The translations under genes were made by a program, and so were the position numbers. A stretch of 33,618 bases of DNA, taken from contig CAZHOF010000002.1 in assembly GCA_964534105.1 (NCBI GenBank), forward strand, positions 1-33,618, read 5' to 3'. This stretch comes from an uncultured Candidatus Saccharibacteria bacterium. Lineage in GTDB: Bacteria > Patescibacteriota > Minisyncoccia > UBA6257 > GWB1-50-10. Of the stretch, positions 6,159 to 9,054 are shown piece by piece. Below the pieces are notes generated by a model. The model saw only the letters and a program-made list of their open reading frames with translations. It ran no database searches and was not told the DNA's origin. Numbering within the stretch: the first letter of the stretch is position 1; the number at the start of each line of letters is the position of its first letter.

Positions 6159-6186
6159 TTGACATTTACTGATAATATGATATAAT
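6159..6186 (+). promoter_or_regulatory. consensus sigma70 promoter TTGACA-N16-TATAAT
   Basis: TTGACA at 6159-6164 and TATAAT at 6181-6186. A perfect match to both hexamers is unlikely by chance in 33 kb. The track's ATG at 6185 sits inside the -10 box, so the real start is downstream. Confidence 0.75.
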
Positions 6187-6227
6187 GAGCAAGCACATTA
6201 AGAAACTGGGAAATAAGCGCAAGCGTC

Positions 6228-6243
6228 TTCCTGATATCAGGAA
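6228..6243 (+). promoter_or_regulatory. 16-nt perfect palindrome TTCCTGATATCAGGAA in the 5' UTR, overlapping the SD region
   Basis: Read directly. It lies between the predicted TSS (about 6193) and the AGGAAAGGAAGG SD. It could be an operator or an SD-sequestering hairpin. Confidence 0.4.
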
Positions 6244-6256
6244 AGGAAGGTACGAG

Positions 6257-6658
6257 ATGTTCAAGAAAGCATGGGCGTATCTGGTGCTGGTGAATCGTAA
6301 GTACAACAACTCGCTGTTCGCCGGGCTGGTCGTCGGGCTGCTCATCGGGCTGGGCGCCGGGCTGGCCATCGGGTTGACCTACGGGCTGGCCTACGGGCTT
6401 GTCAACGTGCTGATCCTCGGGCTGTGCACCGGGCTTGTCGCCATACTGGCCGTCGGGCTGGGTGCTGGGTTGAGCGTCGGGCTGGGCGCCGGGCTGGGCA
6501 TCTGGCTGGGCGCCGGGCTGGGCACAGTAACCTCAATAGGCGTCCTGTATCTCGCCCAGGTTATCGGCTGGATGCCAATCGTCGCAATCGTCCTTGTCTC
6601 CACTCTCACCGTGTGGTACCACCGCCGGAAGAAGAGTGTAGCGATGACGTCGGGCTGA
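6257..6658 (+). CDS. glycine-zipper repeat membrane protein (133 aa), unknown family
   Basis: Start is ATG at 6257, preceded by GGAAAGGAAGG-tacgag. The protein is MFKKAWAYLV.., then 17 consecutive G-L-x-x tetrads, then a hydrophobic segment, then HRRKKSVAMTSG. It has its own promoter and terminator. Confidence 0.7.
   Translation: MFKKAWAYLVLVNRKYNNSLFAGLVVGLLIGLGAGLAIGLTYGLAYGLVNVLILGLCTGLVAILAVGLGAGLSVGLGAGLGIWLGAGLGTVTSIGVLYLAQVIGWMPIVAIVLVSTLTVWYHRRKKSVAMTSG
6323..6523 (+). repeat. about 17 tandem 12-nt units (consensus nnnnnnGGGCTG) encoding (G-L-x-x)n
   Basis: GGGCTG/GGGCTT/GGGTTG recurs every 12 nt. Leu is invariant in all 17 units and Gly is present in 14 of 17. Confidence 0.85.
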
Positions 6659-6664
6659 CCATCA

Positions 6665-6700
6665 AGAGCCCTTAGCAATATCATGCTGAGGGCTTTTTCT
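6665..6700 (+). terminator. intrinsic terminator after the glycine-zipper gene
   Basis: AGAGCCCT..(AGCA-loop-TGCT)..AGGGCTTT followed by TTCTTTG. Confidence 0.6.
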
Positions 6701-6744
6701 TTGATCTCGCTTTAAGCATATATTACCAGTTACCATTCTCTACT

Positions 6745-6778
6745 TAAAAAAGAGGGGCAGTCATAACGACAGCCCCTC
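6745..6778 (-). terminator. intrinsic terminator for the 175-aa orphan gene
   Basis: The minus strand reads GAGGGGCTGTCGTTATGACTGCCCCTC followed by TTTTTT, 12 nt after the stop codon. Confidence 0.7.
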
Positions 6779-6789
6779 AAAGATGGAAA

Positions 6790-7317
6790 TTATGGGTGGA
6801 GAAGAAGACGCTCCGAGTACCGCTGGCGACGGCGCCTTTTCGCGCTGCCGTCTCCGTGCCGGCGCCTCTTGCGATCTTCCGAGCTCGGCGGTCCTCCACG
6901 AATCACCCAGACGGCGACAATCTGACAAGCGGCGCTCCGTATACCGGCACCGCTCAACGCGCTTGGAATACGCAACACAGGGGGGCTTTCCCGAACAGGT
7001 CTCATGGAAACACCCCGCGAGCCGTTCCGATGGGCAACATCTTCCAGAAAAATCCCTTCCCGGACCCCGATCTTGAGGACAAGAGGAATTTCTCGTCCCC
7101 CGTCCATGACCCAGCCCAAGCGATGCTCTACCCCGGGCGTATCCCGTTGCCACTCCGAGGCAAAAATCCTGGGGTGTCTCAGTACGCCCTCCTGACGCGC
7201 CCCCCCGCTGCTGTCACCACCGGAATTTATTTTCTCCCGTTCCGATGATGCAATCTCGCGGAGCACTGCTTCCGCCCTCCCTCCGGGCATAGCGGAAATG
7301 ACCCGTACCACATCCAT
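6790..7317 (-). CDS. hypothetical protein, 175 aa, GC-rich, Arg/Lys-rich C-terminal tail
   Basis: Start context is TTTCAAGGAGGGttgaagcATG, with a dedicated terminator downstream. The protein ends ..SSEDRKRRRHGDGSAKRRRRQRYSERLLLHP. Long ORFs on both strands make the frame choice less certain. No family recognised. Confidence 0.5.
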   Translation of the reverse strand: MDVVRVISAMPGGRAEAVLREIASSEREKINSGGDSSGGARQEGVLRHPRIFASEWQRDTPGVEHRLGWVMDGGREIPLVLKIGVREGIFLEDVAHRNGSRGVSMRPVRESPPVLRIPSALSGAGIRSAACQIVAVWVIRGGPPSSEDRKRRRHGDGSAKRRRRQRYSERLLLHP

Positions 7318-7484
7318 GCTTCAACCCTCCTTGAAACTTTTCGCGTTGATCCCGGCGACAAAAAGGAAACTCAGGTAAAATAACACCTCCTTTCCTGCGT
7401 ATGCATTTTATGTTAAAGAACTCTGACCGGATTTCCGGCCTGGAGATTATCAGCCGAAAGCGGACAATCTTCAACCCGGAAATG

Positions 7485-7512
7485 AAACCTCCCGTTTGAA
7501 ACGGGAGGTTTT
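7485..7512. terminator. 13-bp-arm hairpin AAACCTCCCGTTT-g-AAACGGGAGGTTT with flanking A/T tracts (bidirectional)
   Basis: Read directly. On the minus strand it follows the 28-aa ORF by about 25 nt and is followed by TTTCATTTCC. Confidence 0.65.
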
Positions 7513-7535
7513 GGTATTTCTTTCTCTTTTCTAAA

Positions 7536-7622
7536 CTAACACTTACCACAACCTCCCCCACTGTACGGAATAAGGACGACGGTAACGGAGAAAAGAACGT
7601 GGGAAAATAGTTTCATTTTCAT
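7536..7622 (-). CDS. 28-aa hydrophobic micro-protein MKMKLFSHVLFSVTVVLIPYSGGGCGKC (C-terminal CxxC)
   Basis: ATG at 7622 lies 4 nt downstream of a TATATT -10 box (leaderless geometry). The stop is TAG at 7536-7538, followed by a hairpin terminator. It is below the ORF-track cutoff. Confidence 0.5.
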   Translation of the reverse strand: MKMKLFSHVLFSVTVVLIPYSGGGCGKC

Positions 7623-7626
7623 TTCT

Positions 7627-7655
7627 AATATAGGAAGATTTCGGAAAAAGGTCAA
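7627..7655 (-). promoter_or_regulatory. near-consensus promoter TTGACC-N17-TATATT driving the 28-aa ORF / short RNA
   Basis: On the plus strand, ggtcaa is at 7650-7655 and aatata at 7627-7632, with a 17-nt spacer. Confidence 0.65.
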
Positions 7656-7687
7656 GGGCGTGTCTATGAAAAAGAGGTAGAACCTTG

Positions 7688-7713
7688 AAATGACTCAACC
7701 GGTTGAGTCATTT
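7688..7713 (-). terminator. 26-nt perfect palindrome AAATGACTCAACC/GGTTGAGTCATTT downstream of the DUF5671 gene
   Basis: Read directly. It begins about 20 nt after the stop at 7734. The A/T tracts are part of the arms. Confidence 0.5.
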
Positions 7714-7733
7714 CCAATATCCCTAAATAAGCT

Positions 7734-8693
7734 CTATCGTACCGCAGGCGACCCCTCAAGCGCCGGCTTCGGGAAAAAATCCTCGTCAATAGTGCGATCA
7801 AAGCAGGTCTCGCCCGCTTCATGTTCCCACGACATCACGCTGCCGTATTCGTACCGTGCGGGAGTTGTGTCCACCTTAAGTGAAGGCAACGAAAACGTCG
7901 TGCAGAGAGAAAATTCCTGATCTCCCGTCACCTCATAGCCGTATGCCTCCGAAGTTTTGGGATCAACGGGCACCGAAACACTGCGGAGCGGATCCTCCAG
8001 GTTGGAAAGATCTTGGGGTAATACCTCCTTCTGCTGCCAGTAATAAACTATCTGATTCTGAAGATACTGCAGATCACTCACGCGCCGCTCATCGGATTGC
8101 CGCAAACGTTCCTGTTGGGGCGAACCGGCAACGAAAAATCCGGCGATGACAGCAATAAGAACTCCGGCGATGACAGCAAAGAAAAAGGGACGCACCCAAG
8201 TGGCGTGATCATGGTACGATCTTCGTAAACTCCAGATGTAGTACGCGAAAACAGAACCAGCCACCACAAAGATGGAAAGTACCTTCAGAAGGAAACGGAC
8301 AGTCAGCTCACCGTTCAAAAACTTATAGATAAGCGTGATCAAATCACCCCCGATCAGAAGCGCAACGACAAGAAGTGTGAAATAGACCAGCCATTTTCGT
8401 ACCCGAAGCTCTCGTTTCTCCGGAGAAGAGGAATAAAGACGCTCCAAAAAACGGGTAATCCAGATATAGACCGGAAAAGCGACGATGAGAGAGGCGAGAG
8501 CGCCGCGGATCAAGCGTCGCGCCTCAAGTGTTGCATAGTACCCGCCTTCAAGAGGGTCCTGAAAACCGAGATTAATGTATTGGAATAAAAGGATGAGCAG
8601 TGCCGTTGCACTTGCGTACAAACCGACCATAGCAAGGATATGGAAGAAAACATCGCGGGCTCCGCTCTCACTGTGTGATAAAGATGACGGCAT
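7734..8693 (-). CDS. DUF5671-like multi-pass membrane protein with a pilin-like C-terminal globular domain
   Basis: N-terminus ..ARDVFFHILAMVGLYASATALLILLFQYINLGFQDPL matches my memory of DUF5671. The C-terminus RRVSDLQYLQNQIVYYWQQKEVLPQDL..PVDPKT..YGYEV..FSLC follows the pseudopilin/pilin head pattern. ATG at 8693 avoids overlap with hpf; ATG 8753 and TTG 8768 are alternatives. Confidence 0.7.
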   Translation of the reverse strand: MPSSLSHSESGARDVFFHILAMVGLYASATALLILLFQYINLGFQDPLEGGYYATLEARRLIRGALASLIVAFPVYIWITRFLERLYSSSPEKRELRVRKWLVYFTLLVVALLIGGDLITLIYKFLNGELTVRFLLKVLSIFVVAGSVFAYYIWSLRRSYHDHATWVRPFFFAVIAGVLIAVIAGFFVAGSPQQERLRQSDERRVSDLQYLQNQIVYYWQQKEVLPQDLSNLEDPLRSVSVPVDPKTSEAYGYEVTGDQEFSLCTTFSLPSLKVDTTPARYEYGSVMSWEHEAGETCFDRTIDEDFFPKPALEGSPAVR

Positions 8694-8709
8694 AAAAAGG
8701 TTTTTTAAT

Positions 8710-9054
8710 TTATTTGTTACGGGTTCGACGTTGGGTTCGATTAGTTGCCTCATTTTTGTACGAGGCAATATTGTTTTTTAAAATGTCACGGATTCGGTCA
8801 ATAGCGGATCGGATATCCTCGTCTTTGTGTTCCGCGCGCAGAATGGTACCCGGCAGCTCAAGCGTTGCCTCGGCGTAAAAAACATCGCCCGATTTATGAT
8901 GCCTGGTTGAGCGGGCAAGTTCGACAAACACCGTCCGCTCTCCCTCTTTTTCAAAACGCCTCAAAAATCGCTCCAAGGTACCGATCTTTTCCTCTGCGTA
9001 TTGCCGAACAGAAGGCGTAAGATCCAATCGTGTTCCCTGGATATCAATCTTCAT
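8710..9054 (-). CDS. hpf: ribosome hibernation promoting factor / RaiA family (short form)
   Basis: 114 aa, MKIDIQGTRLDLTPSVRQYAEEKIGTLERF.., typical of the S30AE/sigma-54 modulation protein family. It has no long C-terminal dimerisation domain. Confidence 0.85.
   Translation of the reverse strand: MKIDIQGTRLDLTPSVRQYAEEKIGTLERFLRRFEKEGERTVFVELARSTRHHKSGDVFYAEATLELPGTILRAEHKDEDIRSAIDRIRDILKNNIASYKNEATNRTQRRTRNK

Follow-up and report, generated by a model that had tools for sequence, protein, structure and literature searches.

A candidate leaderless leader-peptide attenuator upstream of an orphan gene in a Patescibacteria-type genome

The analysed window is a 33,618-nt stretch (contig C2) of a Patescibacteria/CPR-type genome of 633 kb in 68 contigs, ~90% complete and derived from lake-water metagenomes. 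On the minus strand, gpsA and the genes for DUF5652, VKOR, a ribosome hibernation factor and a DUF5671 membrane protein lie upstream of a compact unit made of a promoter, a short ORF and a hairpin; a 175-aa ORF (7317-6790, minus strand) starts 167 nt past the hairpin. All parts that the sequence-only reading had listed for this unit (promoter, ATG 4 nt on, 28-codon ORF, GC hairpin and T-rich tail) are present on the minus strand. The -35 box TTGACC (7650-7655), read from the sequence and found by a consensus scan, is separated by a 17-nt spacer from the -10 box TATATT (7627-7632). TTGACC-N17-TATATT matches the consensus at 10 of 12 positions and is the top promoter-like site within 6500-9000. 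The ATG at 7622-7620 lies 4 nt past the -10 box, and a second in-frame ATG follows at 7616 (ATG AAA ATG AAA). The leader ORF (7536-7622, minus strand) comprises 28 codons plus TAG (7538-7536) and encodes the peptide MKMKLFSHVLFSVTVVLIPYSGGGCGKC. The start codon of relatives aligns with the second ATG, and initiation there would yield a 26-aa peptide.

The intrinsic terminator occupies 7478-7512 on the minus strand, with a stem formed by 7512-7502 and 7494-7485, a loop at 7501-7495 and the tail TTTCATTTCC. Its arms read AAACCTCCCG (7511-7502) and CGGGAGGTTT (7494-7485) around the loop TTTCAAA, and CATTTCC follows. The terminator scan assigned this hairpin to the plus strand only because it lengthens the stem through A-U pairs; when the stem is taken to end at CGGGAGG, six of eight positions in the minus-strand tail TTTCATTT are T, and the U-tract in the window is interrupted. 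Promoter-like sites numbered 3 versus 1.6 +/- 1.5 in shuffled sequence and terminator-like sites 3 versus 3.2. Since neither motif class exceeds chance by itself, motif scores alone do not establish function, and the case that the unit is real is made by sequence conservation among relatives. Rfam returned no family at gathering scores over the whole window, and no tRNA or tmRNA was detected. A look through RNA sequencing runs yielded none that contains the stretch. A permissive Rfam scan of 6600-7800 gave sub-threshold matches only, the best over the unit being Phe_leader (RF01859) at 25.1 bits against a threshold of 55. Extension of the ORF by stop-codon read-through or an alternative genetic code was rejected, as the downstream frames differ between the window and its relative L014.

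Two other features of the neighbourhood were recorded. A perfect palindrome, AATGACTCA-N6-TGAGTCATT, occurs in five copies in the 633-kb genome (window 7687-7714; C1:43459, C11:8675, C30:3533 and C47:4024), and its 6-nt centre differs between copies yet remains palindromic. The window copy sits between the DUF5671 stop codon and the leader -35 box and has no counterpart in the congener L026; the palindrome could be a repeated site for protein binding, or a mobile hairpin. Further along, the window and the near-identical contig L013 differ by a 60-nt in-frame indel (6436-6495) within a Gly-Leu tetrad repeat protein gene (6185-6658, plus strand), so that the repeat number varies among strains.

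Direct searches did not lead to the unit in other genomes. A nucleotide search of 40 related genomes with the unit gave chance matches only, and a peptide search of 95 genomes of the family gave three weak matches. Two of these (L011 and L012) were dismissed as chance, lying inside larger ORFs on the opposite strand; the third (L010) falls in a 229-aa frame. Relatives were then located by anchoring on neighbouring genes. Contig L013, related at the level of the same strain, is identical over the unit and hence uninformative. The congener L026 has the same synteny and a downstream protein 74% identical to that of the window. Promoter, ORF, untranslated spacer, terminator and post-terminator region are each 92-96% identical between L026 and the window, compared with 80% for the regulated gene and only 36% for the DNA upstream of the -35 box. 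A contig from a groundwater strain aligns to the window at 93% identity without gaps between 7660, just upstream of the -35 box, and its own end at 7377; on the upstream side of 7660 it is unrelated to the window. The unit is also retained in L014/L031 (DUF5671 protein 76% identical) and in L029/L030 (downstream protein 50% identical). In one relative (L014:560-1000 and L031:473-1833), DUF5671 and the leader are separated by two inserted genes, one for an ArsR/MarR-type HTH protein and one for an acidic protein of 319-335 aa, and the inserted HTH gene is bordered by copies of AATATTCTCAAGAATGTTGGAATGT-like repeats.

We assembled 14 regions upstream of homologues of the 175-aa gene, representing ~11 independent lineages. 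A promoter, a short ORF and a terminator precede every homologue retrieved. A TTGAC -35 box was found in 12 of 13 testable leaders at 33-43 nt before the ORF ATG, a spacing that implies a 5' UTR of 0 to ~8 nt and a leaderless or nearly leaderless message. The leader ORFs span 18-46 codons, and outside the genus their peptides can no longer be aligned. All 14 leaders carry a GC hairpin with a T-rich tail, and the gap between the stop codon and the terminator 5' arm is 17-31 nt in 13 of them; in the remaining one, L031, whose ORF is truncated, it is 47 nt. Terminator variants in the relatives sit in the loop or preserve pairing: C7503 is U in the groundwater strain and still paired as G-U, and the innermost G-C pair is C-G in L014. 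In L038, the terminator and its flank (AAATAAAGTTAATTGGGCC...TTTTTGTTTG) occur in tandem duplicate upstream of the gene (1-60 and 180-230), which looks like a duplicated leader.

The distance from the terminator to the Shine-Dalgarno (SD) sequence of the gene varies between 38 and 170 nt. In two genomes (G260 and G183), the ATG of the gene comes just 38 nt after the terminator, which leaves no room for a promoter, so that the gene there would be transcribed only by read-through of the terminator. For the ORF itself, we required an ATG within 17 nt of the -10 box, at least 18 codons and closure before the terminator arm. Such an ORF was found in 10 of 10 testable lineages, against 0.03-0.12 per lineage in dinucleotide shuffles (joint probability ~4e-13, a value somewhat inflated because the -10 boxes, like the terminator arms, were chosen by eye ahead of the tests). 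The proposal of a ~150-nt promoter-to-terminator unit with a leaderless or near-leaderless short ORF for a hydrophobic peptide is thereby upheld. Its framing as a stand-alone gene or sRNA overlooks the unit's constant place directly upstream of one gene family.

That gene (6790-7317, minus strand; SD GGAGG at 7330-7326) encodes the 175-aa orphan protein, in which two motifs, ISAMPGG..E.ILREIA and LKxGVREGxF, are accompanied by an Arg-rich tail. Homologues are sparse and comprise forms of 146 aa (G084 and G088), 173-201 aa (metagenomes) and 450-500 aa; the 175-aa protein corresponds to the N-terminal domain of the 450-500-aa forms of other lineages. Neither it nor the long form belongs to a Pfam, NCBIfam, PADLOC or PHROG family, and no sequence match was found in the PDB. 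An AlphaFold2 model of the long form (pLDDT 83.8) had no significant fold match in a Foldseek search of the PDB (best E = 0.015, TM ~0.12). A Peptidase_S9 or alpha/beta-hydrolase gene follows the long-form gene in L032, L034, L036 and L038.

Comparison of the leader peptides separated two parts of the ORF. In L026 the peptide, MKMKLFSHILFSVTVVLIPYSGGGCGK-stop, differs by three synonymous changes, V9I and a change of the last Cys codon from TGT to TGA, and so ends in GGGCGK. The 93% identical groundwater strain carries one synonymous change together with S21R and G22R, by which RRGG replaces SGGG. Within the genus, codons 1-20 have accumulated four synonymous changes and V9I, and codons 21-28 S21R, G22R and C28stop. 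The L029 peptide, MYPFISLFLAVAAVLIPQRTGGFCQ, ends in GGFCQ with one Cys, and the L031 peptide, MKRFSRYLLAAVAVFISA, contains none, a 1-nt indel having created a stop 2 nt ahead of the conserved GGGGGAGGTTGTGG; in L031/L014 the ORF closes 2 nt short of the GGGGGAGG segment. Cysteine is also rarer than expected in peptides of the family (5 observed versus 14 expected). The hinge-encoding GGGGGAGGTTGTGG is conserved as RNA, being the strand that pairs with the terminator 5' arm, and GGGGGAGGUUGUGG translates as Gly-Gly-Gly-Cys-Gly. These patterns indicate that the hydrophobic N-terminal part behaves as a constrained peptide and that the Gly3 hinge with CGKC does not. The earlier suggestion of a functional CxxC pair and Gly3 hinge in a redox or metal micro-protein is contradicted by the CGK-stop of L026, by S21R/G22R, by the tail-less L031 peptide and by the depletion of Cys.

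The hydrophobic character of the peptides extends across the family. The most hydrophobic 11-residue window of the peptides exceeded that of composition-matched, stop-free shuffles (Fisher 1e-6). Residues in excess are Phe (31 versus 20, P = 0.005), Ala and Met, and those in deficit are Asp/Glu, Pro and Cys. Ile, Leu and Val together stand at the expectation from composition (z = 0.03), on which ground branched-chain amino-acid sensing was discarded as a specific claim, and the leader ORFs contain no run of one regulatory codon. The window peptide matched no known small-protein family, and Pfam IlvGEDA_leader (PF08046) scored it at 14.1 bits against a cutoff of 25. This match and the one to Phe_leader, each sub-threshold, were the sole database matches and speak faintly for an attenuator.

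The RNA-level role of the ORF's 3' end became evident from its complementarity to the terminator. Segment B (GGGAGGUU-G-UGGUA, 7544-7557, minus strand), within the 3' end of the ORF, is the candidate antiterminator strand; segment C (UACCA-A-AACCUCCC, 7503-7516, minus strand) consists of the terminator 5' arm plus 4 nt and is common to antiterminator and terminator. In the minimum-energy fold of the window transcript ended before the terminator 3' arm (segment D), B pairs with 7516-7503. The window B:C duplex has an energy of -15.6 kcal/mol versus -8.3 +/- 1.9 in shuffles (p = 0.005). For each lineage we took the strongest duplex that the ORF region can form with the terminator 5' arm. Its energy roughly equals that of C:D. 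In 8 of 11 lineages it outperformed 1000 dinucleotide shuffles (p <= 0.011; Fisher 2e-12 over the lineages), and it was weak in G084/G088 (p 0.29-0.49), G055 (0.086) and L034 (0.099). Across the leaders, B lies inside the ORF or just past it, within the ribosome footprint of the stop codon.

The sequence of B tracks that of the terminator. B reads GGGAGG in leaders with the arms CCUCCCG/CGGGAGG, UCGGGGGCU in those with GCCCCCG/CGGGGGC, GGAAAGUUGGC in those with AGCCGACUUUCC/GGGAGGUCGGCU, and GGCCGGUUUU in those with GUCGGUCU/AGACCGGUUUU. When the transcripts of the window, L029 and L031 stop short of the 3' arm, their computed fold is the B:C helix, and the full-length RNA folds into the terminator (z = -2.65 versus shuffles). 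Segment B is identical in L026 and the groundwater strain. From the ATG to the end of the terminator stem, the pairs of B, C and D are broken by none of the five changes in L026 and none of the six in the groundwater strain; within-genus changes sit in loops or yield G-U pairs. A fourth segment forming an anti-antiterminator A:B helix was no better than shuffles (Fisher 0.81), so that the pairing which a four-segment trp-type model needs lacks statistical support. RNAalifold on the window and L014 identified two compensatory pairs at the base of the A:B (P1) hairpin. When the 95 terminator-like hairpins of the window genome are compared for an upstream decoy arm, that of the unit comes only 7th, or 2nd if absolute energy is the measure. 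Other terminator-like hairpins with a strong upstream copy of the 3' arm are C8:14348-14374 (plus), C19:4190-4212 (minus) and C20:2937-2966 (minus), which may be further attenuators.

Beyond the terminator, read-through would produce a structured 5' UTR. Hairpin P4 (7441-7474, minus strand) was identified by RNAalifold on 10 leaders and has several pairs with 3-5 pair types. A weak promoter-like match, TTGAAG-N17-GATAAT at 7474-7446, overlaps the covarying P4, and its -10 box is not conserved. Hairpin P5 (GGCCGGAAAUCCGGUC, 7425-7440, minus strand), detected by scan and RNAalifold, has equivalents of different sequence in L029, G055, G084 and L033. The motif GTTCTTTAA (7413-7421, minus strand) was read directly from the leader sequences, in most of which it takes the form GTTCTTTR; it is kept in nearly all lineages, even where the terminator-to-gene gap is only 38-61 nt. 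The whole P4/P5/motif region (window 7413-7474) has equivalents in L026, L031, L029, L021, L033 and L032, and the three elements may constitute a second regulatory layer. An SD-like AAAGGAGGTG (7386-7395, minus strand) has no usable start codon and is followed by a pyrimidine tract, UCCUUUUU, able to pair with it. A second upstream ORF (7386-7321) behind the SD-like AAAGGAGG was rejected, since its GTG abuts the SD and the frame differs among the window, L026 and L031.

The comparisons above show the anatomy of the leader, its conservation, that of its ORF and the B:C complementarity. On this basis we propose, with a probability of about 60%, that the unit forms the first part of a transcription attenuator that depends on the ribosome and a leader peptide and controls the 175-aa orphan gene. 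We infer the direction of the switch, its dependence on the ribosome and the nature of its signal as follows. Transcription would start at the ATG or a few nucleotides before it, so that ribosomes would translate the ORF from a message with no leader or almost none. Segment B (GGGAGGUUGUGGUA), a near copy of the terminator 3' arm, lies in the final third of the ORF. A ribosome at the end of the ORF would mask B, whereupon the terminator C:D could form, transcription would stop and an RNA of ~140 nt would be released. If B were left free, either by failure of initiation or by a stall in the hydrophobic codons, B:C would form once C is made; this would block the terminator, and RNA polymerase would continue through the structured 5' UTR into the gene. 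What is sensed could be overall translation capacity or the supply of charged tRNA for hydrophobic residues, Phe among them. Because the A:B segment lacks statistical support, the behaviour of the switch without leader translation is uncertain. The absence of a single-codon run, the weak B:C pairing in G084/G088, G055 and L034, the interrupted U-tract and the hairpin's modest rank within its genome also count against the model. The hydrophobicity of the peptide goes beyond what an attenuator needs, which hints at a role for the peptide itself; it may additionally act as a small membrane protein.

A stand-alone gene for a small membrane protein, with no CxxC function, would make the ORF the first of two cistrons, followed by an ordinary leaky terminator, with the peptide as its functional product and B:C as an element of mRNA stability or an incidental pairing. 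Selection of the hydrophobic core past nucleotide composition, the depletion of acidic residues and Pro, and the four synonymous changes plus V9I in codons 1-20 within the genus all suit such a gene; so does a 45-aa homologue in L033 that was predicted by the gene caller, and the linkage to one family would be natural for a peptide partner of that protein. We nevertheless regard it as unlikely. The peptide cannot be aligned beyond the genus and varies in length between 18 and 46 aa, conservation of the untranslated spacer and of the post-terminator RNA equals that of the ORF, and the peptide has no match among known small-protein families. The distance from the stop codon to the terminator stays within narrow limits, and B:C changes along with the terminator across lineages, a pairing that a simple terminator does not need. 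If the unit were instead a non-coding cis-regulatory RNA or sRNA, the 140-nt transcript, or a 300-nt leader including P4, P5 and GTTCTTTR, would bind a protein or ligand and the ORF would be incidental. RNA-level conservation of the whole leader, covariation in the post-terminator P4, the compensatory P1 pairs between the window and L014 and the stable full-length fold are what such an RNA would display. An ATG ORF of at least 18 codons at the predicted start in every testable lineage is hard to reconcile with an incidental ORF, hydrophobic bias is a property of translation and not of RNA, and all Rfam families fell below threshold; we therefore hold the non-coding account to be improbable.

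The suggestion of a type I toxin, in which a membrane-damaging hydrophobic peptide is held in check by mRNA structure and an antisense RNA, draws on the short, hydrophobic peptide, its basic N-terminus and the structured mRNA. In a simple consensus scan, no promoter-like site occurs on the opposite strand over 7480-7660, the sole plus-strand match in 6500-9000 being at 6655, and the genome contains no paralogue of the peptide. The unit has a fixed place before one gene family, is inherited vertically in the genus in synteny with DUF5671, and the neighbouring protein has no PADLOC match. With neither an antisense promoter nor paralogues, a toxin is highly improbable.

The proposed attenuator has counterparts in better-studied bacteria. 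Leaderless leader-peptide attenuators have been described in Actinobacteria, at ilvBNC of C. glutamicum (PMC11857589) and in amino-acid operon leaders (PMC1262725), and polycysteine leaderless short ORFs are known from mycobacteria (bioRxiv 10.1101/834739). Like the actinobacterial attenuators, the window unit has a short ORF at or near the transcription start with no Shine-Dalgarno sequence, competing hairpins and a terminator before the regulated gene, and presumably a readout of ribosome position. In contrast to them, it precedes an orphan gene and not a biosynthetic enzyme, lacks a run of a single regulatory codon and resides in a 0.63-Mb Patescibacteria-type genome.

Hydrophobic leader peptides are a classic feature of the ilv and leu operons. 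The unit resembles enterobacterial ilvL of ilvGMEDA (PF08046), ivbL and leuL in its ~30-aa hydrophobic peptide, in an ORF that extends into the antiterminator strand and in a terminator ~20-30 nt past the stop; VLFSVTVVLIPYSGGGCG resembles the ilvL pattern of a hydrophobic run followed by IPPCG. It departs from them in that Ile/Leu/Val stand at expectation across its family, in having three supported segments and not four, and in being leaderless rather than SD-led. A further parallel is rnTrpL/peTrpL of Sinorhizobium meliloti, where an attenuator yields a small RNA and a functional leader peptide (PMC6614838, PMC7298713). As in that system, one short transcript could serve as a cis attenuator, a released sRNA and a peptide mRNA, and a peptide function of this kind would fit the extra selection for hydrophobicity. 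The window peptide and RNA are unrelated to rnTrpL/peTrpL in sequence, and no function in trans is indicated for them.

Most likely, then, the attenuator is a known kind of switch that here forms an undescribed family in a Patescibacteria-type lineage; a full-text literature search found no paper on attenuators in Patescibacteria. We can offer as a speculation of low probability that, in ultra-small Patescibacteria auxotrophic for amino acids, a leaderless hydrophobic leader gauges translation or the supply of hydrophobic aminoacyl-tRNA and switches on the orphan protein, which is restricted to certain lineages and has no significant structural match in the PDB, with the peptide doubling as a small membrane protein. 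On this reading, the S9-family peptidase or hydrolase gene that follows the orphan gene in many lineages would suggest a starvation or scavenging response. The double use of the peptide would explain why hydrophobicity has been selected past the needs of an attenuator.

For small-protein mining, the locus holds a caution, in that a striking short-ORF motif such as CxxC can stem from an RNA pairing strand. To our knowledge, almost nothing is known of gene regulation in Patescibacteria (CPR). The leader, as judged by comparative sequence evidence, appears to mark the orphan protein family, in its short and long forms, as conditionally expressed. If the attenuator model is true, reduced Patescibacteria genomes would retain coupled transcription-translation sensing and would apply it beyond genes for amino-acid biosynthesis.
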